64,000 bases of DNA from Candidatus Magasanikiibacteriota bacterium (GCA_016193335.1 JACPSK010000001.1:585440-649439), one strand, 5' to 3'. Positions 826 to 64,000 are shown, counted from the first letter of the stretch. The notes: generated by a model not told the origin, from the letters alone. Numbers and translations are program-made.

Positions 826-2208
826 ATGACAAACTACGAAATCTGGCAAGCTGTCCTCGCTGAGTTTGAGCTCAAACTTTCAAAAGCAAACTTCACGACG
901 TGGTTTAGCAGTACAGGCATTGCCAAATTTGAAAAAGGCGAAGTAATCATTTGCGTACCAAATGCCTTCACCAAAAGTTGGCTTGAAAAAAAATACCATT
1001 CCGGTGTAATAAAATCCCTTGAAGAGATAACGGGAAAACCGGTCCGCAAAATTGATTACACAGTGGAAAGTATAAAAAACATAGATGAGCACGAATGTAC
1101 AATCGGCAAAGAAACGAACGTATCCACTTCCAAAACTCCTCTTTACTCACCCCAACTTAAAACGAATGTTCCTCAAAAATTTGGATTGAACGCCCATTAT
1201 ATTTTTGAAAACTTCATTGTGGGCAAAGGCAACGAATTGGCTCACGCCGCCGCCCAAGCTGTGGCCCAACGTCCGGGACAAGCTTACAATCCTCTGTTTA
1301 TCTACGGAGGCGTGGGACTTGGCAAAACCCATCTTTTACAGGCAATAGGCCAGGCCATGCTCAATTCCAACCCCCAGACCAAAATTCTTTATGTAAGCTC
1401 TGAAAAATTTACCAACGAGTTCGTGGCCTCTATCAAGGAGGGAAGAGCGAAAGAATTTAAAGATAAATACAGAAATGTAGATCTTCTCCTCATCGATGAT
1501 ATCCAATTTATCGGGGGAAAGGAACAAACTCAAGAAGAATTCTTTCATACTTTCAACGAACTTCACCAACAAGGAAAACAGGTCGTTATGACCAGTGACA
1601 GACCCCCCAAAGCAATACCGGCGCTTGAAGATCGCCTGCGAAGCAGATTTGAATGGGGAATGATTGCTGATATTTCCACTCCTGATCTTGAAACCCGTGT
1701 CGCCATTTTGCAATCAAAGGCACAAGAAAAAAATTTCGAATTAGATTCTGAAGTCCTTACCACAATCGCCACAAGCATACAAAGCAATATCAGAGAGTTG
1801 GAAGGCGCTCTTAACAAGGTTATAGCCTATCATCATCTCAAAAATCTCCAGCCCACAAAACAGTCAATAAAACACATTCTGGCCAGTTTTGAAGAACAAA
1901 ATATGCGCCGCTCGGTGACTCCCCGAGAACTTATTTCAGAAGTCTCCATTTTCTATGATATTGGAATCGAAGATGTGTTGGGAAAGAGCAGAGAAAAGCG
2001 TCTTGCCTTTCCAAGACAAATAATCATGTATCTGATGAGAGAGGAATTAAAACTCTCCTACCCGGCCATTGGAGACGAACTTGGCGGACGCGATCACACC
2101 ACGGCCATGCATGCCCACACCAAAATCATTTCAAACATTGAAAATGATCTAAAATTAAAACAAGACATCGACATGATCAAACAGCGGCTCTATACACAAA
2201 ATATGTAA
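826..2208 (+). CDS. dnaA: Chromosomal replication initiator protein DnaA
   Basis: 460-aa ORF with Walker A GGVGLGKTHLL, the AAA+ sensor LLIDDIQF, and a C-terminal DnaA-box-binding domain (RQIIMYLMREELKLSYPAIGDELGGRDHTTAMHAH). Confidence 0.97.
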   Translation: MTNYEIWQAVLAEFELKLSKANFTTWFSSTGIAKFEKGEVIICVPNAFTKSWLEKKYHSGVIKSLEEITGKPVRKIDYTVESIKNIDEHECTIGKETNVSTSKTPLYSPQLKTNVPQKFGLNAHYIFENFIVGKGNELAHAAAQAVAQRPGQAYNPLFIYGGVGLGKTHLLQAIGQAMLNSNPQTKILYVSSEKFTNEFVASIKEGRAKEFKDKYRNVDLLLIDDIQFIGGKEQTQEEFFHTFNELHQQGKQVVMTSDRPPKAIPALEDRLRSRFEWGMIADISTPDLETRVAILQSKAQEKNFELDSEVLTTIATSIQSNIRELEGALNKVIAYHHLKNLQPTKQSIKHILASFEEQNMRRSVTPRELISEVSIFYDIGIEDVLGKSREKRLAFPRQIIMYLMREELKLSYPAIGDELGGRDHTTAMHAHTKIISNIENDLKLKQDIDMIKQRLYTQNM

Positions 2209-2454
2209 AACCTGGGCATAAGCTGTCTAAAACCAAAAAAAAATCTGTTCATAAAAACAAAAGGTATACACACAAAATCAACAAACAATTCCAAACAAAA
2301 AAAATCACACACACATTAAACAAAAATATCCCCACAAATTGTTTAAAAAAAAAGAAGAAAAATTATCTTAACTGAGCCTTTTAAAAAATTTATCCACCGT
2401 ATTCACAGCCCTTATTATATATTACTACTATTTTAAAATTAAATAATATAATAT
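2209..2454 (+). promoter_or_regulatory. dnaA-dnaN intergenic AT-rich region with a DnaA box (candidate oriC DNA-unwinding element)
   Basis: Very AT-rich with poly-A runs. TTATCCACC at 2389-2397 is followed by a short TA-only stretch immediately 5' of dnaN. This matches the classical bipartite oriC layout. Confidence 0.55.
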
Positions 2455-3588
2455 ATGAAATTCATCTGCACCAAAGAAAATCTTATCAGGGCTTTGAATG
2501 TTGTGAGTCCTTTAGCGGGAAAACAAAGCAATCTGCCCATCTTGGATAATATTCTCATACAGGCAAAAGGTTCCCTTATAGAACTATATTCAACCAATCT
2601 TGAGTCAGCAATAAAAACAAGCTCCAGGGCGCGGGTAGAGAAAGAAGGAAGTTTTACCGTACCGGCAAAAACACTCACTGAATATGTTCACCTCCTAAAT
2701 GAGGAACAGGTTGAAGTGACCGTTGATGGAAATGAGTTGTTGATTGTTTGCGGCAGTTCAAGTACAAAAATAAAAGGAACTTCTTCCGATGAATACCCCG
2801 TGATACCGGAATTGGGAGAGCATCAAATTTTTTCTTTTGATTTGGCTTCTTTCAAAAACGCTTTGGCTCGAGTGGTTATAGCTGTGGCAAAAAATGAAAT
2901 ACGTCCCGAATTGTCCGGATTGTATTTTGGATTTGGAATGGAACATTATCCCGAGGGTTTGGTTTTGGCAGCCACGGATTCCTATCGCTTGGCTGAATCA
3001 AAAATACCTTTTAAAAAAAGAGAGAATGGAGACATCTCGAGTATTGTCCCCGCAAGGGTGGTACAGGAGATAATACGTTTACTTTCTTTGGCAGAAAGAG
3101 AGGCAAGCCCGGGAGAAGATCCTCAGTTGTTAATTAGTAAAAACCAGATCGCTTTGCATTTTTTCGGTACACAATTAATAGCCCGTTTGGTGGAAGGAAC
3201 CTATCCTGATTATGTTCAGATAATACCTAAAAATTTTAAGACAAGAGCCGTCGTGCCAGTGGATATAATGATAAACAAAATAAAAGCTGCGAGTCTTTTT
3301 AGCGCCAGTGGTATAAATGCGGTATCTTTTGATTTGAATGTCTCAAATAAAACAATGGGTATTTCCTCAATGAGCAGTCAAACCGGTGAACACAGCTCAG
3401 AAATAGAAAGTGAGTTGGAAGGTGAAGAAAATTCCATTTTACTTAACTTTCGTTATGTACTGGACGGTTTGCAGCATATGCCAGGAGAAACCATCTTTTT
3501 TGGAGTAAACAGCGGGGAGAGTCCCTGTGTGCTTAGACCCTCCAAAGAAGACGGCTACACATACGTGGTAATGCCAATAAGGAAATAG
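2455..3588 (+). CDS. dnaN: DNA polymerase III beta sliding clamp
   Basis: 377 aa with typical DnaN architecture (MKF.C.KE.L...L..V...) directly after dnaA. Confidence 0.95.
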   Translation: MKFICTKENLIRALNVVSPLAGKQSNLPILDNILIQAKGSLIELYSTNLESAIKTSSRARVEKEGSFTVPAKTLTEYVHLLNEEQVEVTVDGNELLIVCGSSSTKIKGTSSDEYPVIPELGEHQIFSFDLASFKNALARVVIAVAKNEIRPELSGLYFGFGMEHYPEGLVLAATDSYRLAESKIPFKKRENGDISSIVPARVVQEIIRLLSLAEREASPGEDPQLLISKNQIALHFFGTQLIARLVEGTYPDYVQIIPKNFKTRAVVPVDIMINKIKAASLFSASGINAVSFDLNVSNKTMGISSMSSQTGEHSSEIESELEGEENSILLNFRYVLDGLQHMPGETIFFGVNSGESPCVLRPSKEDGYTYVVMPIRK

Positions 3589-7834: not shown

Positions 7835-9226
7835 ATGCATGTTCGATATCTTTTTTACAAGATCCTCTTGTATGTACTTAAGTCCTTTGTTTATTTGAAA
7901 CGAGGCCTTTTTTTTGTTCTCACTAAAATCTGGCGGAGTTTACTGTATATTAATATAAAATACAGTAAAAGTTTGGGGTTTTATTTGTATAAGATATTTT
8001 TTTACATAAACAGATTTGTCAAAAAAAATATTTTACTTCATAAACATGCGCCAATAGAGCTTTTAAGCCAGCGCGCCTTTCTCCAATTTTTTCTTTTTTT
8101 GGTTGTTTTTATCATTATGATTCCTCATAGTAAACTGTATACCAAAGAATATGACTATGTGCCGGGGCGACGGACCTTGTTGTATCAGCTCGTCGGCCCG
8201 GGAGAATCCGACTTTGACACAGAAGAACTTGCCGGGGATATCTCTTTTATCGAGTCGTCTGGCGTTACCGGTTTGTGGAAAGAGGGCGCGGTAGTAGCAA
8301 GGCCAGGACAGTCTGGCGATGAAAAAATTGATGAATCTTTGCAGGAGATTTCAGGGGTTAGCGTGGGAGGAAGCGCGGTGACAAAACCTATCATAGCCCC
8401 CGGAGCTGGTGTTGATTTTAGTTCAGACACCGTTGAAGTGGCAAAACGTAGCTCTGTGATAATCTATGAAGTAAAATCCGGAGATTTGGTGTCTAGAATA
8501 GCCGAGTTTTATGGTATAAGTGTGGATACCATTCTCTGGGCTAATGGACTTTCGGCCAGATCTTATATCCGTCCAGGAGACGCATTAAAGATACTTCCGG
8601 CGGATGGAGTTTTGCATGTGGTTAAATCCGGTAATACGATATCTGGTATTGCCAAGACTTATGGGGCAAAGGCTGAAGATATTGTAAAATTTAATAAACT
8701 CCAATTAGACGGATCTGACATCGTGGTTGGAGAAGAACTCATAATTCCCGGAGGAAAGAAACAAGAATCAGCTAGCCGCTACGTCCAAGTTACGCCTCAA
8801 CAGTTGGCCGCCAGAAATAAAGTAGTGGCTCCGCCTCCTTCTATTTCAGCTCCCGCGGGTTCAGGCTATATCTGGCCGGCCGCCGCTCGGTATATTACTC
8901 AGTACTATGGTTTGAGACACACGGGACTCGATATCGCCGGAGACACGGGAGTGCCGGTTTACGCGTCCAAGTCTGGCACAGTGGTGAAATCCGCTTGCGG
9001 CTGGAACGGAGGCTATGGGTGTTACATCATTTTGGATCATGGCAATGGTATCCAAACCTTGTACGCCCACAATTCACAATTATTTGTATCTGAAGGTCAA
9101 GCAGTATCTCAGGGCCAAACCATTTCTCTGATTGGGTCTACCGGACGCTCCACCGGTCCTCATGTGCATTTCGAGGTGAGAGCCAGTGGCAGACGTCTTA
9201 ATCCTCTCCGTTACGTGAGGCAGTAA
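7835..9226 (+). CDS. LysM-repeat / M23 family peptidoglycan endopeptidase (start codon uncertain; the first ~90 codons of the listed ORF are probably not coding)
   Basis: Two LysM motifs (YEVKSGDLVSRIAEFYGISVDTILWANGL and HVVKSGNTISGIAKTYGAKAEDIVKFNKL). M23 catalytic motifs HTGLDIAG and GPHVHFEVR. A TM helix precedes them. Confidence 0.85.
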   Translation: MHVRYLFYKILLYVLKSFVYLKRGLFFVLTKIWRSLLYINIKYSKSLGFYLYKIFFYINRFVKKNILLHKHAPIELLSQRAFLQFFLFLVVFIIMIPHSKLYTKEYDYVPGRRTLLYQLVGPGESDFDTEELAGDISFIESSGVTGLWKEGAVVARPGQSGDEKIDESLQEISGVSVGGSAVTKPIIAPGAGVDFSSDTVEVAKRSSVIIYEVKSGDLVSRIAEFYGISVDTILWANGLSARSYIRPGDALKILPADGVLHVVKSGNTISGIAKTYGAKAEDIVKFNKLQLDGSDIVVGEELIIPGGKKQESASRYVQVTPQQLAARNKVVAPPPSISAPAGSGYIWPAAARYITQYYGLRHTGLDIAGDTGVPVYASKSGTVVKSACGWNGGYGCYIILDHGNGIQTLYAHNSQLFVSEGQAVSQGQTISLIGSTGRSTGPHVHFEVRASGRRLNPLRYVRQ

Positions 9227-10755: not shown

Positions 10756-11113
10756 AAAAAAATAGAATATATCAGATATGATTTTACGGTATTGGAGGTT
10801 AATTTTTTCTTAAGACAATTTTTTTGGGTTTTTGCGTACAATGTGGGAGATTGACAGAAAGATAGGATTCTGTTACATTAATTTATCACTTTTTAACTTA
10901 TTCCGGTTGAGAAGTGTTTGTTCTTTACAGGCTTTGAGCATAAGTCTATACAATTATCTATCAAGATAGATGCGTTCTTGACACAACGATAGACGAGGTT
11001 TCGGGCTTTATTTCGTTCCGAGTTATGCAAAAAAATCTGAGATTGTTTTTTCCGTTTTAAAAGGTTTTTTGGCACGACTTGGAACTGAGGCGTTCGAACT
11101 TGGGAGGGGACAA

Positions 11114-11908
11114 ATGGGAGACGCAAAGGTTGTGAGTTTGAGGGGCGAGCAGAATTCCAGCTCAGGTGGGCCGGGGGGACCGGAAAGGCCGTCTTCTTTC
11201 CTTGACAAGAGACGAGTTACCTGGCTGGTTACCGCTTTGGCGGTTTTGACGATGGCTCTTTTGTTTTTCGCCTTCGTTGCGGTCTGGACCAGGCTCAAGG
11301 CTTACGATGAGAGCCATGTCTTGGTGGGCGTTGAGAGTTTTCGCGCCTTGTCTTACCAAGCCTCATTGAGCGAGTCTTTGAGCAAAAACAACATTGTCTT
11401 TTATGAAGCGCTGAAACAGGCTCTGGACGAAAAGAAGTCCCTCGAGCTCCGGATTCAAGCCTTGCAGAAGGGACCCGGCTTTGGGGAAGGCTATGTTGAG
11501 GGCCGTCGGGAGGCCCTTGACCATGTGGCGCTACGTCTCGGCCTGGGAAGCGAGTTTTTCGACCAGCTTCTCTGGACTGCCGAGATTTGCCATGGTGACT
11601 CTAACTTGGTCTGGATGCGGGATCAACTCGCCGGCATCGCGGCCGGCTTTGGCTGCTCCTGCTACTGTTCAGAGCTGGTTAATCTGACAATTAAAGATGC
11701 CAGCCTGGAGCAGGTGCTTGCCTTTCTCGCAAGGGAATCCGGCGTTCCTGTGTTTAACGACGCCAAGATCACAGGAAACGTGACGTTGCGGTTCACAGAC
11801 ATACCCGCAAGTCTCGCGCTTCAGGCCATCGTAGGGCAGTTTGGCGCGGATCTGCGCTTCGAAGACGGCGCATACCATGTCGTGCCCTTTGTTGTAGGGG
11901 GAAAGTAA
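11114..11908 (+). CDS. GC-rich membrane-anchored protein with a C-terminal STN / secretin-N-like domain
   Basis: The ORF opens at TTG 11069. ATG 11114 is preceded by GGGAGGGG, so I prefer it. A single TM helix (LVTALAVLTMALLFFAFVAVW), a coiled-coil-like region, then VNLTIKDASLEQVLAFLARESGVPVFNDAKITGNVTLRFTDIPASLALQAIVGQFGADLRF. This resembles the STN / Secretin_N fold of TonB-dependent receptors and secretins. Codons are GC3-rich, unlike the neighbouring genes. Confidence 0.6.
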   Translation: MGDAKVVSLRGEQNSSSGGPGGPERPSSFLDKRRVTWLVTALAVLTMALLFFAFVAVWTRLKAYDESHVLVGVESFRALSYQASLSESLSKNNIVFYEALKQALDEKKSLELRIQALQKGPGFGEGYVEGRREALDHVALRLGLGSEFFDQLLWTAEICHGDSNLVWMRDQLAGIAAGFGCSCYCSELVNLTIKDASLEQVLAFLARESGVPVFNDAKITGNVTLRFTDIPASLALQAIVGQFGADLRFEDGAYHVVPFVVGGK

Positions 11909-32895: not shown

Positions 32896-34644
32896 CTAGC
32901 TGTCCAGTCTGCTCGGTCTCAGACGAGCCATGTCGTGGACCATGAACCCCCGTCCAGAACCCAGGTCGGAAATGACTCCGGCTTCTTTGATTCTACCCAT
33001 GACTCGGATCACGGTCTCGAGCGTCATCCCGGTGAGCTCGCCGAGCCGTTGCCGGGTAAGATCCAAGGACACGAGGCGTCCACGGCTGTCTCCTTCCACG
33101 CCGAACCTGGTGGCGAGCAAGAAGAACAAGTAGCGTAGTCTCGTCTCCGCCGAGGCGTTGGCCAGCAAGCTTGCACGCAGAGCGTCTCTCTGCGCACGTC
33201 CGCCGAGGCGGCCCCAGAACAAGCTGCGCAATCCCGGGTCTTTCTGGAATTTCTCCCAGAATGTGGCCGATGGAACCCGAATCAATACACCAGGATCCAG
33301 GGTCAGGATAGTTTCCGTGTACTTGGTGGTGCCACAGTACATATCCCCAAGGATTTCTCCACTGCCGTGCACATCGAGAATGCCGGTGTACTCACCGTTT
33401 TCATATTCTCGGACAACGCGGCCAGAGAGCAGGAGGAAAACGTCCTCAGGATCTGCACCCTGTCGGTACACGTGGGCCCTGCGCCGGTAGGCTTCGATCT
33501 CGCCGAGATCAAGCAGGTAGCTGGGCCAAGTTCCGGGGAGTCCGCCTTCCCGCTTGATCTGGCTCGCTACACGGCTGATTCTGGCGTTCGCTTTTTCTCC
33601 GTGCGATTGATAGGCTATGCTGGGCCTAAATGCCGGAGGATCAGGCCGGTCAATAACCAGGGCAGAGGCATCCGTCCGAGTGTAGACAGGGTGTCCAGTA
33701 TCTGGTCTCTTTTTTTCAGTTGCCGCCTCGTCGTCCGGAACACGGGTTTCCTCGTCTTCTCGGCTGTCTTCATGGTCATCATCTTCCCATTCCAGATCAG
33801 CCGGTTCAGGCAAGTCCTCAGGCTTATCAGTGAGAGGCTGGTCGCCCTCAGCTCTTGCTTCTGCGGCCGCTGCTCTAAGGGCGCGTTCGGCCAGTTGCTG
33901 AAAATACTGAATGGCCCCTTTGACCGAGATCTTGGCCATGCCATGGTAAACGTTGTTCAGCTCTCGGAGAGCTGCGCGCATGGCATCGTGAGTAGTACAG
34001 AAACGAATCAGCACTTCTGCCACGCCCAGCTTCAGACGATCGTCTGCTACTGCCTCCTGTAAGTCTTCAGGGAGCTTCAAGAGGTCGAGTCGCTTGCAGA
34101 TATGACCCTGGGAACGGCCCACCTTCTTCCCGAGTTGGCCTTGGGTAAAGCCGCCTTCATCGATCGCTTGCTGGAAGGCGTGGGCTTCCTCAATCGGGTT
34201 GAGGGGCGTTCTGACCAGGTTTTCCACGAGGCCGATCATGTAGGACTGCGGATCAGCAACCCTGATGACCGCGCGGATCAACTTTCTGCCGAGCCTGACG
34301 TGCGCCCGCCAGCGAGTCTCGCCAGCCACTAACATAAACAAACCCGTCTCAGCATGATCAGGCGCTGGCTTCAACACCACGGCGCTGATCAGGCCGTCGG
34401 CCTCGATTGAGTCGGCCATCTGTTGGATAGCCTCCTCCGTGAAACGCTTTCGACCCTGTTTGGGGTCAGCCACAATCCGAGCTACGGGAACCATGTATTC
34501 CCTGCTCGGGGCTTCTTCAACGTCCTCTCGGTGAACGACTTCTGCAAGTGTGCTGATAGACATGCCTAATGCCTCCCGTATCTTGGTTTTCCGCAGGACA
34601 AAAGACCCTGGAATACAATATCTAACTACCAGTTCCATTGTCAA
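32896..34644 (-). CDS. GC-rich fusion protein: ParB/Spo0J-like N-terminal and HTH domains, an acidic linker, then a Crp/Fnr-type cNMP-binding domain with a winged HTH
   Basis: N-terminal ParB motifs (GETRWRAHVRLG, LVENLVRTPLNPIEEAHAFQQAIDEGGFTQGQLGKKVGRSQGHICKRLDLLKLP). Asp/Glu-rich linker. C-terminal cNMP-binding beta-roll (VFLLLSGRVVREYENGEYTGILDVHGSGEILGDM) and Crp-type HTH (TRQRLGELTGMTLETVIRVMGRIKEAG). A likely alternative start is MSISTLAEV at 34563, preceded by GGGAGG. GC3-biased. Confidence 0.7.
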   Translation of the reverse strand: MTMELVVRYCIPGSFVLRKTKIREALGMSISTLAEVVHREDVEEAPSREYMVPVARIVADPKQGRKRFTEEAIQQMADSIEADGLISAVVLKPAPDHAETGLFMLVAGETRWRAHVRLGRKLIRAVIRVADPQSYMIGLVENLVRTPLNPIEEAHAFQQAIDEGGFTQGQLGKKVGRSQGHICKRLDLLKLPEDLQEAVADDRLKLGVAEVLIRFCTTHDAMRAALRELNNVYHGMAKISVKGAIQYFQQLAERALRAAAAEARAEGDQPLTDKPEDLPEPADLEWEDDDHEDSREDEETRVPDDEAATEKKRPDTGHPVYTRTDASALVIDRPDPPAFRPSIAYQSHGEKANARISRVASQIKREGGLPGTWPSYLLDLGEIEAYRRRAHVYRQGADPEDVFLLLSGRVVREYENGEYTGILDVHGSGEILGDMYCGTTKYTETILTLDPGVLIRVPSATFWEKFQKDPGLRSLFWGRLGGRAQRDALRASLLANASAETRLRYLFFLLATRFGVEGDSRGRLVSLDLTRQRLGELTGMTLETVIRVMGRIKEAGVISDLGSGRGFMVHDMARLRPSRLDS

Positions 34645-55281: not shown

Positions 55282-55523
55282 GTTTTCACAGGATATAGTA
55301 TGGAGGCTTATTGGTCAATGAATGATATATGAGCTTGAGATTGACATCCAAAGCTATCTATGGTATAAAATCTAGTCAAAAGTTTCTCCGACTGTTTTTT
55401 TCTCTTTATTAACACAAAATAAAGGGCAGAAGTCAGTCGGGAGAAACGCCCGACCAGTTGGCGGTCTGGGGCTCCGGCATGGCGCTGGAGTGAGAGGCTG
55501 CCATTGCGTAGGAGGAAGTCCCC

Positions 55524-56399
55524 ATGGGACGACGTAGTAGGAGTGAAATCTCCGCGATCATGAGCGGAGCAGGTGTCGTTACCGCTGTCTGGACCAAGCT
55601 CGACGCCGCCGTGAGGAAGCTCGACAGCGCGGCTGCGGATGCCTGTCTCTATCGGCTGGCGACGGAGGAGGGAGACGATGTCATCCTCGAGATGGCGAAG
55701 GCTGCCGTGGCGGCACAGAAGAAGGGCACGGCGGCTCCTGTGGCGGCGCCGCAACTGCCGCCTCCGTCCGTCATAGACATCTCGAAGTTCTTCGCGCCGG
55801 TCGCGGACAGTGAGGCCATCATCCTGCTCACGCCGCAGTTCGGTAGCGAAGAGGCGGCGCGGATCGTGTACCAGTGCCGTCAGCTCGCCATGGACGAGGG
55901 CTACACCGGCTTCATCTTCTGGCGCGCCGCGGCCGGCTTCCTGTGGCGGACGCACGGTCCGCTTTTCGGCACCTGCCGCGAGAACTGGAAGTACCTCCAG
56001 ACCTGGAGGCTGAAGAACGACCCGACCACGACCGACTCCCTGGCCTTCTTCGTCCCGCGGCTGCTCACTGGCAGCACGGGCAAGGCGGTCACGGACCAGC
56101 GCAAGCTCCTCGTCGAGACGCGAGCCAAGTACACGCTCCCCGAGCCCTTCCTCAAGGACTTTGGTTCGGCCGCGTACGTCGCCGGACTGACGCTCTCGCA
56201 CCACCGCATCACGAGCGAGCGCACGCCGCTCGACCTGCTGTGGGCGCGCTGCGAAACGTTCCGCGAGGATGGCGGTCGCCTCGGCTTCGGCTTCTTCCTC
56301 GAGTCGAGCGGCCTCGGCTGCCTCAACTGGGACGACGGCCTCCCGGTCGACTTCATCGGCATCTTCCCCCTGGGGGTGGTGCCGATCCTCGGTCACTAG
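55524..56399 (+). CDS. DGR target (variable) protein; GC-rich; the C-terminal about 38 aa are encoded by the variable repeat
   Basis: RBS AGGAGG precedes ATG 55524. Strong GC3 codon bias on the plus strand. The C-terminus ...REDGGRLGFGFFLESSGLGCLNWDDGLPVDFIGIFPL is encoded by the VR. Confidence 0.85.
   Translation: MGRRSRSEISAIMSGAGVVTAVWTKLDAAVRKLDSAAADACLYRLATEEGDDVILEMAKAAVAAQKKGTAAPVAAPQLPPPSVIDISKFFAPVADSEAIILLTPQFGSEEAARIVYQCRQLAMDEGYTGFIFWRAAAGFLWRTHGPLFGTCRENWKYLQTWRLKNDPTTTDSLAFFVPRLLTGSTGKAVTDQRKLLVETRAKYTLPEPFLKDFGSAAYVAGLTLSHHRITSERTPLDLLWARCETFREDGGRLGFGFFLESSGLGCLNWDDGLPVDFIGIFPLGVVPILGH
56259..56372 (+). repeat. DGR variable repeat (VR)
   Basis: About 114 bp aligning to 56739-56852 with about 20 mismatches. 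Every mismatch is at an A in the TR copy (e.g. GGC/GAC, TTC/AAC, CTC/AAC, GTC/AAC). The 3' end ATCGGCATCTTCCCCCTG is identical in both (IMH-like). Confidence 0.9.
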
Positions 56400-56738
56400 G
56401 ATCCTCGGTACTGACACGAAGTCGGTACCTTGGTCCATCGGTCTTTGGGCCCCACCCGCAACGCATTTCGGTGCAACGCGCGTGAGGCTTCTTCTTTTAT
56501 ATACAAAATGTGATATACTTTTTTTGCATTATACCGACAGCACCGGCGTCCACGGATGCCGGCCGATAATGTCTGGCAACAGAATTGTAGAATTACAAAA
56601 CGTACGCGTTTTGTAAGAACATCCCTGTTGTTTGTGGGTTCACACACCCCGTGTTGGACGTTAAGAGACAGCGGTTTCACATTCGATACAGCTCGGAGAG
56701 TTTTCAACGAGCAGTGGCACGGACAGCGCTCAACACTT

Positions 56739-56852
56739 TTCCACGAGGATGGCGGACGCCTCGACTTCGGCAACTTCAACGAGTCGAACGGCCTCAACTG
56801 CAACAACTGGAACGACGACAACCCGAACGACAACATCGGCATCTTCCCCCTG
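56739..56852 (+). repeat. DGR template repeat (TR)
   Basis: Carries AAC (Asn) codons wherever the VR has diversified codons. It lies between the target gene and the avd/RT genes. The listed ORF 56556-56885 merely reads through it. Confidence 0.9.
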
Positions 56853-56898
56853 ATGATGTGTGCACCCAAAAGACGATTCCTCTGAATCGTCTTTGACG

Positions 56899-57282
56899 TT
56901 ATTTCAAACTGTGTAGCCACCCGCCGATCATTTTACCGATTACTGCCAGGCGTTCTGACAATTGCGCGTATTTGTTATTGTCCAGTGCTTTGATTTCCCA
57001 AAGAATTTGCAGAAAGAATTTTAACGCGTCAAATTGAGCACTTAATTTTTTAACAATGGCTAGCTTGTTTGTCCGTTCCGCATAACCGGCCGCGAGCGCC
57101 AGTGATAAAATATCGGTAAAAATTGCATCAATTTTTATACCCAATGAATACCGTGTGAGTCGTGGCAAATGAATTAAAAAACTATGCCAGAGTTTATAGG
57201 CGTTACTCAAACCATCAACGATCGGAATGTAGCTCTGGGGGGGGGGATTCCTAGTTTCGGATTGCGTAAGCAATTGCTTCAT
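56899..57282 (-). CDS. avd: Accessory variability determinant (Avd)-like four-helix-bundle protein (start placed at MKQLL; the ORF opens at 57330)
   Basis: About 127 aa. ...LPRLTRYSLGIKIDAIFTDILSLALAAGYAERTNKLAIVKKLSAQFDALKFFLQILWEIKAL...ERLAVIGKMIGGWLHSLK resembles Bordetella-phage bAvd and the 23S-rRNA-intervening-sequence four-helix-bundle family. It is on the strand opposite to the TR and RT. Confidence 0.7.
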   Translation of the reverse strand: MKQLLTQSETRNPPPQSYIPIVDGLSNAYKLWHSFLIHLPRLTRYSLGIKIDAIFTDILSLALAAGYAERTNKLAIVKKLSAQFDALKFFLQILWEIKALDNNKYAQLSERLAVIGKMIGGWLHSLK

Positions 57283-58281
57283 AGCTATGGTGATATTATT
57301 TCTATATCCAATCTTCTTGCCGCTTGGCAAGAGTTTGAAGTTGGAAAGAGTAAGAAATATGACGTTGTTCTGTTTGCGGATAGGTTAATGGACAACATCC
57401 TAGCACTCTATACGGATTTAGTAAACCGGACATATATCCACGGTGGTTATCGTGAATTTCGCATCAACGATCCCAAACCGCGTCTGATTCACAAAGCGAG
57501 TGTGCGCGACCGTTTGCTACATCATGCGGTACATAGAATGCTCTATCCTTTTTTTGATCGAATTTTTATTTTTGATTCCTTTTCTTGTCGGACCAATAAG
57601 GGCGTGCGTGCGGCGATTAACCGATTCAGAAAATGCGCGCACAAGGTCGGGCGCAACCATACACGCACAGTATGGGTCTTGAAATGTGATATTCGAAAGT
57701 TTTTTGCGAATATTGATCATGAAATTTTGTTGCGTATTCTTGATTATTATATTCCGGATAAAAGAATTGTGGATTTGCTGGAGAATATTATTGTAAGTTT
57801 TTCTATGACATCTGGTACTTCAGTTGGTTTGCCGTTGGGAAATTTGACCTCGCAGTTATTTTCCAACATTTATTTAGACCGACTCGATAGATGGGTGAAG
57901 CATCAGTTAAAAGAAAAGCATTATATTCGTTACGCGGATGATTTTGTGTTTTTATCCGCGGACAGAAATTATTTGCTGTCCTTGATTCCACAGGTGCAAC
58001 ATCTTTTATCCTGCACCTTAAAATTAGATCTGCATCCGAATAAATTTTTTTTAAAAACTATTGCGTCAGGTGTGGATTTTTTGGGCTGGATACACTTTTC
58101 AGATCACCGTGTACTTCGAAAAGTGACAAAACGGCGAATGACGAGAAAATTGGCGGAAAATTTCAAACCGGAAGTCCTGCAGTCGTATTTGGGATTACTC
58201 TCGCATGGGAATACGTTTAAGCTGCAAGAGACGATTAAGAATCAATTTTGGTTGGGCGGCACGCATATGTTAATGGGGTAG
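57184..58281 (+). CDS. DGR reverse transcriptase
   Basis: DGR-RT N-terminal block (NLLAAWQEFEVGKSKKYDVVLFADRLMDNILALYTDLVNRTYIHGGYREFRINDPKPRLIHKASVRDRLLHHAV), motif GLPLGNLTSQLFSNIYL and the catalytic IRYADDFVF. An alternative TTG start near 57262 is possible. Confidence 0.9.
   Translation: MPEFIGVTQTINDRNVALGGGIPSFGLRKQLLHSYGDIISISNLLAAWQEFEVGKSKKYDVVLFADRLMDNILALYTDLVNRTYIHGGYREFRINDPKPRLIHKASVRDRLLHHAVHRMLYPFFDRIFIFDSFSCRTNKGVRAAINRFRKCAHKVGRNHTRTVWVLKCDIRKFFANIDHEILLRILDYYIPDKRIVDLLENIIVSFSMTSGTSVGLPLGNLTSQLFSNIYLDRLDRWVKHQLKEKHYIRYADDFVFLSADRNYLLSLIPQVQHLLSCTLKLDLHPNKFFLKTIASGVDFLGWIHFSDHRVLRKVTKRRMTRKLAENFKPEVLQSYLGLLSHGNTFKLQETIKNQFWLGGTHMLMG
57237..57246. repeat. G10/C10 homopolymer tract inside the avd coding sequence and the RT 5' region
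   Basis: CTGGGGGGGGGGATTCC. It encodes GGG in the RT frame (if the ATG at 57184 is used) and NPPPQ in avd on the opposite strand. Confidence 0.85.
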
Positions 58282-58486: not shown

Positions 58487-59944
58487 GTGAACAGGTTGGC
58501 CAAAATTTTTGTTGTTTTGTTCTATGTGTCTTGTTCCTGTCCTGAAGAGGACGGGGCGGTCATTGCGGATGTTTCGAGTTTTGGCAAGGACGCCGCCGCT
58601 TCCGTTGACACGACCGTGGCCGATATGAACGGCCAACTCGGGTTGTGCTACGTGGCTGAAGATGGCACGCCTTGCGACGATGAGAACGCCTGCACCACGG
58701 GCGATGAGTGCGAGGATGGACATTGCATCGGCGCCACGAGCGTGGTCTGCAAGAGCGACAGCGCTTGCGTGCCGACGAGCTGTGACCCACAGACCGGCTG
58801 TCTTATTGGCGAGACCTTGCCTGATGGCTCGGCCTGCAGCTTGGCTTGCCATGTGGAGGCTTACTGCGAAGCAGGCGACTGCTTGCCTGCCCAAGGCTCC
58901 AAGGTCCAATGTCCGAAGAGCGAGAACCCTTGCGTGGATCACCTGGAGTGCGACTCGGCCAACGGCCAGTGCACGATCCAGATCTTCAAGCCCGAGGGAG
59001 CTTCTTGCGACACGGACGTGAACACTTGCACGTTGGAGACCTGTGACGGTAACGGCCTATGCGCGGCTCAAGGCAAGAACGATTGCGCCGGCCTCAAGGC
59101 CATTGATCCGTGCTGGGCTTACCAGTGTTTGCCGGGCAAGGGTTGCGTGAAGCAACCGGGCGTGTTCTTCTTCAGCCTCTCTTGCGACGACGGGAGTCCT
59201 TGCACGATCAACGACGAATGTCAGCTCTCCGAGGGCGGCCTCGGTGGTTGCAAGGGAACTCCGCTGAAGACGAACGACGGCAACCCCTGCACCAGCGACT
59301 CCTGTGTCGCGGGTGAGGTCTTGCACGAGCCCATCAACGGCGCGCCCTGCGACGACGGCAACCCCTGCAGCGTCTCGGTCTGTGAGGGCAAGATCTGCGT
59401 CTACTACTCGCCGAGCGACTGCACAGACGGCAACCCCTGCACGGACGACGCCTGCAGTGACACCAGCGGCTGCGTCTACTTCGTCAACGACGGCAACCCT
59501 TGCGACGACGGCAACCCCTGCACCAGTGACTTTTGCAAGCAAGGGGTTGGCTGTGAGGCCGAAGTGCTGGTCGCGACGCCCTGTGAGGATGGGAGTCTCT
59601 GTAGCCTCGAGGACTTCTGCTTCGCGGGTGTCTGTCAGCCTGGCGCGAAGAGTCTCGGCTGCACAGACGGCAACCCCTGCACAGACGACGCCTGCCAACC
59701 GGCCAAGGGCTGCGTGTTCACGAACAACGCCAAGCCCTGCGACGACGGCAGCGCCTGCACCGAGGGGAGCTTCTGCAAGAACGGCTCTTGCAGTGGCTAC
59801 GCGGTGCTGAAGACCTGCCTGGACAACAACTCTTGCACCGAGGACATCTGCACCCCGCTGATTCCGGACTGCGTCTTCCCCACGAAGACCGATGGCGTCC
59901 CTTGCGGCGGAGACAAGATCTGTCTCTCGGGCGTCTGCCTGTAG
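58487..59944 (+). CDS. GC-rich secreted cysteine-repeat protein (CDDGNPC / DGNPCTDDAC repeats, Myxococcales-type Cys-rich repeat-like)
   Basis: GTG 58487 is preceded by AAGAGGAG. Lipoprotein-like signal MNRLAKIFVVLFYVSCSC, then at least 12 tandem Cys-rich units (...DGNPCTSDSC..., APCDDGNPCSVSVC, TDGNPCTDDACSDTSGC, NPCDDGNPCTSDFC, TDGNPCTDDACQPAKGC, KPCDDGSACTEGSFC). The ORF opens at TTG 58346. Confidence 0.75.
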   Translation: MNRLAKIFVVLFYVSCSCPEEDGAVIADVSSFGKDAAASVDTTVADMNGQLGLCYVAEDGTPCDDENACTTGDECEDGHCIGATSVVCKSDSACVPTSCDPQTGCLIGETLPDGSACSLACHVEAYCEAGDCLPAQGSKVQCPKSENPCVDHLECDSANGQCTIQIFKPEGASCDTDVNTCTLETCDGNGLCAAQGKNDCAGLKAIDPCWAYQCLPGKGCVKQPGVFFFSLSCDDGSPCTINDECQLSEGGLGGCKGTPLKTNDGNPCTSDSCVAGEVLHEPINGAPCDDGNPCSVSVCEGKICVYYSPSDCTDGNPCTDDACSDTSGCVYFVNDGNPCDDGNPCTSDFCKQGVGCEAEVLVATPCEDGSLCSLEDFCFAGVCQPGAKSLGCTDGNPCTDDACQPAKGCVFTNNAKPCDDGSACTEGSFCKNGSCSGYAVLKTCLDNNSCTEDICTPLIPDCVFPTKTDGVPCGGDKICLSGVCL

Positions 59945-62711: not shown

Positions 62712-64000
62712 CTAGCTCTCCTTGGACTCGGAGATTGCTCCTTGCAAGATTCTTTGCCCTATGGCCGAAAGCGTGGAAACACGTTCACGGTTGGGCCCGT
62801 CCACATAGAGACGGAGCTTGCCTTCTGTACCGCTGGCTCTGAACATGACGTAGGTGTGGTCGGCCAAGTTGATTCTTGTGCCGTCCATGGTGTTTACGTC
62901 AAGAACGCTTGTGAATGATTTGCGAGCCACTTCTACGGCTCGCGCAAGGACATCCACCTTCGCGGAGTCTGAGACCTCGAAGCCATGCTCTTCGTGGTAG
63001 AAGCGCGGCAGTTCGGCGGCAAGTTCGCTGAGGAGCTTGCCGGTTCTCGCCATGATCTCGAGCATCTTCGCCACGGCAAAGACCCCATCATACCAGATGA
63101 AGCCGCCTTTCACAAAGGCGTACTTTGCCGAGTTCTCATAGGCAAAGGCTGCTCTTTCGCGCTTGATTGCCGTGCCGGTATCCGGCTGGCCAATCTTGCA
63201 GTAGCAGACTCGAGCGCCGAGCTCTTCGCAAACAGCTTCGATGAGCTTGCTGGAGTTTACCGGTGTTACCACGGTCTCGCCGCGTCTTACCAGGTACTTG
63301 GCAAAGATCGCGCCGATCACGTCTTCGCCGACAGCTTCGCCCTTCTCGTTGATGAAGAGGACACGGTCGGCATCGCCATCGAAGCAGACTCCCATGTGGC
63401 AGGAGTCGCCGACAACTCGACGCAGAGCTTCGCCGCAGCTCGAGGCACGGCATTCGCTCTTGCGATCTGGCACTTCCTTCGGCTCAGTAAAGATCTGGAC
63501 CACATCACAGCCCAGGGCTCTGAACAAAGGTCCGGCAACTCCGCCTGCGGTGCCGTTGCCAGCATCCACGAGGAGCTTGGGGGCCTCTTCGCCAAACTTC
63601 AGAGAGCTGATGCCCTCGATGTCCAGTCGTTCAAGCAAGGCCCTCGTATAGATTGTTTCAGAGCGTTCAGTCGACACCCTTTGGCTGTGACCGAGGGACA
63701 AGGGTTTGGCGCTGTGAAGCCTTCCGGATTCGAACCAGCGCTCTATCACACTAGTGACCTCTATGTCACAGTAGGTGCCATCGCCATTCACCAAGATGAT
63801 CCCAATCCGGTTCGGCTCCATGTGAGAACCGGTGATCTCGATGCCCCCATCTACAGCGTCCTCTCCCAGGAAGCTCAGCACGGAGAACATCCCGGTGGAC
63901 ATCTGGCCCAAATCCAGTACATCCGCGCCTGCGGACATGGCGCCAGCCATCGCGGCCGCCGCCAAAGCCTGAGCGCCGTTGCGCTGGTCATGCCCTATGG
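62712..64000 (-). CDS. GC-rich phosphohexomutase (phosphoglucosamine mutase / phosphomannomutase family); the N-terminus lies beyond the window end
   Basis: Active-site-like loop GIEITGSHMEPNRIGIILVNGDG (TASHNP-type) and the four-domain alpha-D-phosphohexomutase layout. The reading frame is open to the window edge. GC3-rich. Confidence 0.7.
   Translation of the reverse strand, partial: IGHDQRNGAQALAAAAMAGAMSAGADVLDLGQMSTGMFSVLSFLGEDAVDGGIEITGSHMEPNRIGIILVNGDGTYCDIEVTSVIERWFESGRLHSAKPLSLGHSQRVSTERSETIYTRALLERLDIEGISSLKFGEEAPKLLVDAGNGTAGGVAGPLFRALGCDVVQIFTEPKEVPDRKSECRASSCGEALRRVVGDSCHMGVCFDGDADRVLFINEKGEAVGEDVIGAIFAKYLVRRGETVVTPVNSSKLIEAVCEELGARVCYCKIGQPDTGTAIKRERAAFAYENSAKYAFVKGGFIWYDGVFAVAKMLEIMARTGKLLSELAAELPRFYHEEHGFEVSDSAKVDVLARAVEVARKSFTSVLDVNTMDGTRINLADHTYVMFRASGTEGKLRLYVDGPNRERVSTLSAIGQRILQGAISESKES

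Follow-up and report, generated by a model that had tools for sequence, protein, structure and literature searches.

The 64,000-nucleotide stretch of the genome of a Candidatus Magasanikiibacteriota bacterium analysed here (GCA_016193335.1, JACPSK010000001.1:585440-649439; hereinafter the window, with positions counted from its first letter) carries at positions 55524-58281 a diversity-generating retroelement (DGR). We consider it about 95% probable that this locus is a chromosomal DGR of a Patescibacteria (candidate phyla radiation, CPR) clade in a Candidatus Magasanikbacteria-like genome, operating by the mechanism proposed below. The element, a DGR of the CPR type B3, is intact and diversifies in nature, and its target is an unannotated, divergent protein of the C-type-lectin fold. 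Viewed as a DGR, it is unremarkable and falls within a very large, already known Patescibacteria clade; three clade-wide features, namely an RNA domain with a helix that brackets the template, a simple repeat within avd and the GC contrast of the target, seem to be undescribed, and the functional readings offered for them are put forward as hypotheses. A first-pass annotation, made from the sequence alone, had recognised in this locus the signature of DGR mutagenic retrohoming, and this reading is borne out by adenine-only mismatches, by the identification of the reverse transcriptase (RT) and Avd, and by the variable-repeat haplotypes found in nature. The same annotation called the element a complete DGR with "textbook" mismatches: all the named parts are indeed present, but "textbook" overstates the case, the layout being the CPR-specific B3 arrangement and not that of phage BPP-1.

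The repeat pair differs only at template adenines

The variable repeat (VR) occupies positions 56259-56372 (+ strand) within the target, or variable-protein, gene (55524-56399, +; 291 aa), and the non-coding template repeat (TR), which includes 31 adenines and ten in-frame AAC codons, lies at 56739-56852 (+). When compared ungapped at an offset of 480 nt, these two 114-bp sequences show 20 mismatches, every one of them at a TR adenine (20/20; hypergeometric P = 8.8e-15 under random placement), such that 20 of the 31 TR adenines are altered in the VR and not a single non-adenine position is. Tabulation of the mismatches by TR base therefore agrees with the earlier hand alignment, which had found about 20 differences, all at TR adenines. 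Codon positions 1 or 2 of the target open reading frame (ORF) take 19 of the 20 changes, and nine of the ten in-frame AAC codons, the recoding of which had also been pointed out, read TTC, CTC, AGC, GGC, CTC, GAC, CTC, GTC and TTC in the VR. No stop codon is within reach of adenine substitution in the TR, and the number of possible protein variants is about 6e17.

As had been seen from the outset, both copies end in the same terminal GGCATCTTCCCCCTG, and divergence starts directly 3' of it. The VR had been described as the last ~114 bp of the gene; the length of the repeat stands, but the literal gene end does not, given that the VR encodes residues 246-283 of the 291-aa target and terminates 27 nt before the stop codon. 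At the divergence point, a GC-rich 15-mer identical in VR and TR gives way to the VR 3' flank (56373-56429, +), with a VR-specific G-rich stretch, GGGGTGGTGCC, which resembles an initiation of mutagenic homing (IMH) element, and a 9-bp hairpin (GGTACTGAC/acgaa/GTCGGTACC; 56407-56429, +; DNA fold z -2.2) follows 35 nt downstream. By analogy with the IMH and hairpin of BPP-1 (PMC5758913, PMC3240598), this flank may have a role in homing. No second VR for this TR was found in the window when both strands were searched with any base allowed at TR adenines.

The reverse transcriptase and Avd

The RT gene (57259-58281, +) encodes a 340-aa protein that matches RVT_1 at 8.7e-23 and PHROG 1423 at 5e-97. 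The YADD box that had been noted in it is accompanied by LGNLTSQ, an instance of the signature [I/V/L]GxxxSQ that in DGR RTs takes the place of the QGxxxSP of other RTs (PMC7826257). Its best match in the PDB is 8ub7_A (E = 2e-42), which we checked to be brt of Bordetella phage BPP-1, as opposed to 4e-16 for a group II intron RT and 5e-5 or worse for retron RTs, and its scores against the NCBIfam group II, retron and Drt models are far under the respective cut-offs; the closer affinity to group II intron or retron RTs that had been named as potentially fatal to the DGR assignment is not what these comparisons show. Moreover, the RT keeps the arginine equivalent to R74 of the BPP-1 enzyme (bRT), one of the two residues shown to promote adenine mutagenesis (PMC7826257). 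The TTG start at 57259 is the positional homologue of the ATG of related RTs, and the tblastn matches of these relatives start at residues 1-10 of this version of the protein; an alternative start, ATG 57184, would yield a 365-aa product that reads through the G-run discussed below.

A genome-collection scan with this RT retrieved at least 454 relatives, the best 80 of which were studied (the L-numbered loci cited below); these are 55-63% identical to the window RT and derive almost exclusively from Patescibacteria (CPR) metagenome-assembled genomes (MAGs). In the protein database, at least 7849 RT homologues are found at E<=1e-80.

The gene for the accessory variability determinant (avd, 127 aa) occupies positions 56899-57282 on the minus strand, with its ATG at 57282, and overlaps the RT start head-to-head. 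Its product exceeds the threshold of Pfam bAvd (43.4 bits versus 40) and matches PHROG 3206, "Avd protein of DGR", at 4.7e-14. The earlier claim that an Avd-like gene follows the TR is thus upheld with respect to the gene and corrected with respect to its direction, which is opposite to that of the RT. This minus-strand, head-to-head position recurs in ~75 of the 80 relatives, and the ATG of avd is complementary to a histidine codon conserved in the RT. Gene calls at the overlap are unreliable, with the RT called as 297 aa (57388-58281, public annotation of a near-identical MAG) or as 365 aa, and Avd, although the DNA is identical, as 81 or 127 aa; an 81-aa "Avd" cluster (P0155) was considered as a frameshift variant and rejected, being a different gene call on identical DNA. 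A perfect palindrome, AAGCAATTGCTT, is located at 57265-57276, where the avd and RT frames overlap; its core CAATTG is kept in most relatives and codes for Q-L on both strands.

Diversification between natural assemblies

Exact-protein look-ups yielded eight near-identical contigs from seven samples, one of which is the NCBI MAG contig CAYOIR010000001.1, and Avd fragments identical to that of the window carry the name Candidatus Magasanikbacteria. Pairwise comparison of these contigs with the window covers ~25 kb, including, in L084 and L087, the host tRNA methyltransferase gene, the target, the TR, avd and the RT. The contigs, which are 99.8-100% identical elsewhere, present three VR haplotypes at the level of assemblies: the VR departs from that of the window at four positions in L001 and L084 and at six in L087, and outside the VR there are only two single-nucleotide polymorphisms (SNPs), in the neighbouring methyltransferase gene, and a one-base indel in the G-run. 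All seven distinct variable positions (56266, 56284, 56292, 56293, 56347, 56352 and 56353) are TR-adenine sites. Given that the VR haplotypes differ only at such sites on a clonal background, the element diversifies in nature, and three VR haplotypes in otherwise clonal surroundings are, to all appearances, the signature of recent mutagenic homing. The hypervariability confined to TR adenines that the first-pass annotation proposed to look for is accordingly seen between assemblies, at 7/7 sites.

Layout and relationship to known DGRs

The order of the components, target/VR - TR - (avd, reverse strand) - RT, matches the B3 order with the target upstream, and of the 80 nearest relatives, 62 have a TR/VR pair that is adenine-biased and arranged and spaced in the same way. 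The B3 architecture, "TR-(avd)-RT", is found in 90% of CPR DGRs (Wu et al., 2018, PMC5758913), and DGR clade 2 of Roux et al. (2021, PMC8144416) is restricted to Patescibacteria; the element can be classified as a B3 type that corresponds to this clade. Besides gene order and orientation, it shares with other CPR B3 DGRs the distances between VR and TR (~330-380 bp) and between TR and the avd stop codon (~45-60 bp), an RT identity of 55-74%, the host lineage, and a short target without known domains. It differs from them in the TTG start of the RT, where relatives have ATG, and in the class of its VR: the target family is rare in the clade, its profile matching only one of the 62 related-locus targets (L010), and its VR is of the class …LGxFPLGV, whereas the common targets of the clade end in …CRFAAVRK.

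The resemblance to the BPP-1 DGR (mtd-avd-TR-brt) extends to the homologous RT, with the LTSQLF motif and the R74 equivalent, to an Avd partner of the four-helix-bundle type, to adenine-only TR-to-VR changes concentrated in AAC codons, and to a VR at the C-terminus of a (predicted) C-type-lectin-fold protein, followed by a G/C-rich boundary and a hairpin, the latter predicted in the window. In contrast to BPP-1, the window element is chromosomal rather than phage-borne, its target is small and devoid of recognisable tail-fibre domains, and the TR has no 140-nt spacer on its 3' side but a structured RNA on its 5' side and a helix that brackets it.

Among the related loci, L056, L064 and L065 have the VR downstream of the RT and on the opposite strand, in targets of ~620-650 aa, with the TR RNA domain unchanged. 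Several MAGs with a CPR-type cassette (L005, L010, L041 and others) are labelled Gammaproteobacteria, Bdellovibrionales or Saccharibacteria, probably as a result of automatic mislabelling; L010 carries a 16S gene at 7862-9180.

A covarying RNA domain upstream of the template

In BPP-1, the 140-nt spacer 3' of the TR supplies the Avd-binding and priming site (PMC7826257), and the B3 layout leaves no room for a spacer of this type after the TR. Directly 5' of the TR, and ending 2 nt before it, we identified a three-helix RNA domain (56651-56736, +) that consists of P1 (56651-56662 with 56725-56736), P2 (56666-56669 with 56674-56677) and P3 (56691-56699 with 56704-56712). In an RNAalifold analysis of 48 loci, 21 of the 23 pairs of P1-P3 show compensatory changes and 96.7% of the cells are paired; the covariation score is 0.741, compared with 0.319 for shuffled alignments, none of 500 of which reaches 0.741, and at most 0.225 when the partners are slid. 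A covariance model of the domain (R1) matches once per locus in 73 of the 80 relatives, 13 of them outside the training set, always on the RT strand and at the same distance, and it has a single match in the window (56629-56742, 72.8 bits). The minimum free energy (MFE) fold of the window sequence on its own reproduces the three helices as well as a further one, P0.

The 5' strand of P0 (GGGTTCACACA, 56636-56646, +) pairs with a 3' strand that begins 4 nt after the TR (TGTGTGCACCC, 56857-56867, +), enclosing the P1-P3 domain and the TR in one closed loop, and 10 of the 11 pairs form in the window. The strands read AAAUGAAGA / UCUUCAUUU in the consensus, GGGUUCACACA / UGUGUGCACCC in the window and AUCUCAUACA / UGUGUGAGAU in L010, the closest relative, in which both are fully different from those of the window and yet complementary to each other. 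In a register-based count of pairs over 61 loci, cognate flanks form 8.26 of 10 pairs versus 6.91 for non-cognate flanks, and in the 22 divergent loci the cognate flank outdoes the consensus partner (p 0.005). RNA duplex energies, which were also tried, did not separate cognate from non-cognate flanks, most loci sharing the consensus, and were set aside in favour of the register-based count.

With respect to the ends of this RNA, a putative extended -10 promoter, TGaTATACT (56511-56519, +), aligns with the TTTTTTG(T/A)GATAAAAT block of the relatives, in which an extended -10 box is conserved ~230 nt 5' of the TR, and would place the RNA start at ~56526. Two predicted leader hairpins (56543-56562 and 56593-56616, +), derived from the MFE fold and the alignment of relatives, are the positional counterparts of two conserved CGGTTACGG-loop hairpins in those loci. 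Downstream, a terminator scan detected an 11-bp hairpin, AAAGACGATTC/ctct/GAATCGTCTTT (56869-56894), preceded by an A-run and followed by a T-rich tail, which is likely to be a bidirectional terminator of the TR RNA (+) and of avd (-); nearly all relatives have a hairpin with a T-run 30-60 nt 3' of the TR, and that of the window abuts the avd stop codon.

Retron msr-msd RNAs carry a structured recognition domain 5' of the template, and their a1/a2 helix pairs the template flanks. The resemblance of the window RNA to this arrangement is one of topology only, with P1-P3 in the place of the recognition domain and P0 in that of a1/a2, and it serves here as a lead; no sequence or model similarity to retron RNAs and no sign of a branched 2'-5' product were found in the window RNA, and, unlike retron RTs, the window RT groups with DGR RTs. 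Searches of Rfam, including the RT-associated motifs RT-1 to RT-19 (for such motifs, see Weinberg et al., PMC5737381), detected nothing with E<=10 within 56400-56950, and neither the window nor 10 relatives have a match that attains the gathering score; permissive thresholds brought up only a chance match to ArcZ (E 5.4). The DGR surveys that we searched, a set that leaves out Paul et al. 2017, contain no description of the P1-P3 domain or of a TR-bracketing helix; the covarying domain and P0 thus seem to be undescribed and characteristic of the clade as a whole. P1-P3 together with P0 presumably fulfil the role of the BPP-1 spacer, but from the opposite side of the template, as in retron RNAs.

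A simple-sequence repeat at the avd/RT junction

The junction of avd and the RT gene contains a G10 simple-sequence repeat (57237-57246) located 13 nt upstream of the RT start, which on the avd strand is a C10 run (Pro-Pro-Pro) in the 5' end of the gene, between the ATG at 57282 and helix 1 of Avd (reading …RNPPPQS…). This is the sole G/C run of at least 8 in the window. A G7-G14 run is present at the junction in 51 of 77 relatives, and ~15 others have (GA)n, (GT)n or (CT)n, which brings the repeat-bearing loci to 66-70 of 77; in the 813 kb of related loci, the junction holds 70 of the 72 long simple repeats. The repeat is certainly a specific, conserved feature. Two long G-runs lie off the junction in the related loci, G10 at L016:3288 and G8 at L005:8609.

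In all four relatives without a repeat (4/4), the avd ATG is in frame, and most loci offer no further start codon on the way from the repeat to the conserved LPxLxK..YxLW helix. In the repeat-bearing loci, avd is in frame in only 15-18 of ~72. In the window, with G10, it is in frame, which agrees with the observed turnover of the VR. The G10 run probably gates or throttles Avd production by slippage, the window genome representing the in-frame state. Two readings of the repeat come into consideration, of which the first, held tentatively and somewhat preferred to the second, would add to the explanation of the locus given above.

Conceivably, the repeat is a contingency switch, in which replication slippage alters its length, moves avd in and out of frame and thereby turns diversification on and off among cells; RT expression may also change with repeat length. 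In Haemophilus influenzae, repeats of this kind lie between divergent fimbrial genes. The window repeat is like such contingency loci, for example the poly-G tracts of Campylobacter jejuni (PMC4965091), in that a G9-G11 run or dinucleotide repeat is placed early in a reading frame, between divergent genes of an AT-rich genome; it is unlike them in that the putative switch would control a mutagenesis machine and not a surface structure. The placement of the repeat between the conserved ATG and helix 1, its variation in kind, its near-exclusive occurrence at this site, the scarcity of bypassing start codons and the low in-frame share all fit a switch, although a share near or below one third is also expected of a non-coding repeat. 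Length variation points both ways. Two near-identical pairs are one unit apart: L086, otherwise identical to the window, has G9 and an avd that is out of frame, and L077 and L080, 99.8% identical, have (AG)7 and (AG)6, respectively. However, the G9 run may be an artefact of assembly across a homopolymer, and repeat length is constant in six further groups of 3-7 near-identical contigs, in one group despite 7-15 SNPs. A link of DGRs to such repeats finds no mention in the DGR literature that we searched, a set that leaves out Paul et al. 2017, reportedly the first survey of CPR/Patescibacteria DGRs.

Alternatively, and in our estimate less probably, the repeat is an expression element: RNA-polymerase or ribosome slippage on C9-C11 would bring avd back into frame at a low, constant rate, or else the G-run would serve as a promoter spacer or ribosome-binding element of the RT gene. 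Transcription is known to slip on long homopolymers, and CCC-C runs favour frameshifting by +1. Out-of-frame lengths that are stable across strains, as in four of the six invariant groups, fit constitutive slippage better than switching. Furthermore, in many loci the run on the + strand is followed by a -10-like TTAAAAG or TATAAG, with the RT ATG 10-25 nt further on. Against this reading, the (GT)n and (CT)n repeats found at the junction of some relatives are neither Shine-Dalgarno-like nor classical sites of transcriptional slippage.

The frequency of out-of-frame avd genes among the relatives, along with the fact that activity is read from sequences, might also suggest that the locus is a decaying or inactive DGR remnant with old VR/TR differences. 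We regard this as very improbable: the RT, avd and target ORFs of the window are intact, with avd in frame, and three VR haplotypes at TR-adenine sites on near-identical contigs would require recent mutagenic homing.

The target protein and its GC contrast

The target combines an N-terminal helical part with a C-terminal domain of ~170 residues. It has no match in sequence searches of Pfam, NCBIfam, PADLOC, PHROGs or the PDB, and a profile search of the PDB gave only a marginal match of the N-terminal part (7uek, E 0.0011). In a full HMMER scan, the C-terminal domain proved to be common to 240 cluster representatives; none of 108 tested members of this family has a Pfam match, be it to FGE-sulfatase (PF03781) or to DUF1566. 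Modelling by AlphaFold with the alignment of the family produced a predicted local distance difference test score (pLDDT) of 88.6, with values above 94 over residues 90-290, and in this model the C-terminal domain that carries the VR is predicted to adopt a C-type-lectin/FGE-like fold, as the first-pass annotation had suggested checking. A Foldseek search of the model against the PDB and BFVD found no significant match, so that the target is best regarded as a divergent member of the C-type-lectin fold. It differs in this respect from known DGR variable proteins with the C-type-lectin/FGE fold, lacking a Pfam FGE-sulfatase or DUF1566 match, and its sequence identity to Treponema denticola TvpA (PDB 2y3c), Mtd (1yu0) and TaqVP (5vf4) is ~12%, a relation that Foldseek does not detect. 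No signal peptide or lipobox is evident in the target.

Upstream of the target gene, a putative extended -10 promoter, TGgTATAAA (55361-55369, +), was read from the sequence and overlaps a TTGAGA-18-TATGGT match of a consensus scan. The 5' leader (55382-55447, +) contains a 13/14-nt inverted repeat, GTTTCTCCGACTG … CAGTCGGGAGAAAC, with a loop of ~40 nt that is first T-rich and then A-rich, and may form a regulatory hairpin. Residues 1-45 of the target contain an N-terminal motif, M-x-(K/R)-(K/R)-x-V/S…(S/E)-S/A-G-x-G-(W/F/V)-I/V followed by helices (in the window, MGRRSRSEISAIMSGAGVV), which recurs in otherwise unrelated CPR DGR target families (the targets of L003, L013, L042 and L066) and may be a common docking or localisation module.

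The first-pass annotation had remarked that the target is far more GC-rich than the RT and the chromosome, and the figures agree: the GC content of the target is 0.66 (0.87 at third codon positions, GC3), whereas the RT stands at 0.40 (GC3 0.42) and the window as a whole at 0.446. A comparison with the flanking genome in 42 related loci with short targets, the VR being excluded from the target, gave a mean excess of 0.089 for the targets, with the RT ~0.05 and avd ~0.04 below the flanking genome (Wilcoxon 2e-12); the gap between target and RT in the window is the largest seen. The GC contrast is therefore a property of the clade. DGR mutagenesis was considered as its cause and rejected, given that A and T are depleted about equally in the targets (0.163 and 0.174 in the window, 0.26 and 0.23 on average), which adenine mutagenesis does not explain. 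That the GC-rich target arose by chimeric assembly, or was inserted recently from a foreign source without any connection to the DGR, as the step in GC from ~0.40 to 0.66 over ~1.07 kb and the other GC-rich islands of the window might suggest, is the least probable reading of all, since near-identical contigs assembled independently from several samples cross both borders of the gene and so exclude a chimera, the homologue of the target in L002 and L010 is likewise GC-rich in AT-rich surroundings, and the 42 related loci show the same trend (RT 0.051 below background).

Proposed mechanism and points that weigh against it

Taken as a DGR, the locus would work as follows. A non-coding RNA of ~370 nt would be transcribed from the extended -10 promoter near 56511 and end at the hairpin at 56869-56894; these ends are predicted. 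The RNA would hold the two leader hairpins, the P1-P3 domain and the 114-nt TR, with P0 tying the sequence before P1 to the sequence after the TR. The complex of RT and Avd would bind this RNA, the 5' domain and P0 presumably serving as the Avd/RT binding and priming platform in place of the BPP-1 3' spacer (Sp), and copy the TR into cDNA with random bases opposite the 31 template adenines. In a presumed homing step, the cDNA would then overwrite the VR, at the 3' end of the target, and so recode at least 12 surface codons of the C-type-lectin-fold binding domain, never to a stop, with up to ~6e17 variants.

Several points weigh against this interpretation. Synthesis of cDNA, its priming and homing are proposed by analogy with BPP-1, and the DGR class of the RT follows from sequence matches and motifs rather than from a formal tree. 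Avd scores 58 bits against the NCBIfam equivalog DivGenRetAVD, under its cut-off of 80. P0 is less well supported than P1-P3, and the 5' flank of P1 in the window departs from the clade consensus. Finally, the hairpin after the VR folds only mildly better than shuffled sequence (z -2.2).

Genomic surroundings

Directly downstream of the RT lies another GC-rich gene (58487-59944, +; GC 0.61, GC3 0.76), which has no VR and is kept beside the DGR in the near-identical contigs. Its product, a repeat protein of 485 aa, is rich in cysteine, contains Dicty_CTDC repeats and has at its N-terminus a hydrophobic stretch that resembles a lipoprotein signal (…LFYVSCSC…). Other GC-rich islands (GC 0.55-0.58, compared with ~0.43 for the genome) are located at 11069-11908, 32896-34644 and 62712-63965 and contain an unknown ORF, a fusion of a ParB-N/HTH protein with a cyclic nucleotide-binding (cNMP-binding)/Crp domain, and a phosphoglucomutase/phosphomannomutase. 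In its composition, the genome has the look of a mosaic. The window begins with dnaA-like and dnaN-like ORFs (826-3588), and the cumulative GC skew rises across it, which places the DGR ~55 kb from the probable replication origin.

Implications

In itself, the window contributes a further active DGR to a clade whose members number in the thousands. The hitherto unannotated target family, with its ~240 clusters, can now be filed as divergent DGR variable proteins of the C-type-lectin fold. It is a possibility that we entertain with some reserve that CPR DGRs use two undescribed features in combination, namely a hypermutable repeat in avd that switches or throttles diversification and a retron-like TR RNA, with P1-P3 on the 5' side and P0 reaching to the 3' end of the TR, that replaces the 3' spacer of BPP-1. 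The RNA raises the question of how template recognition and priming occur in CPR DGRs without the BPP-1 spacer, for which a covariance model and helix coordinates now exist, and the composition of the cassette raises the question of why targets are kept much more GC-rich than the rest of the cassette and the host. If the avd repeat indeed gates diversification, this would explain how a cell keeps a useful variant, and the rate of targeted hypermutation would be under stochastic control.

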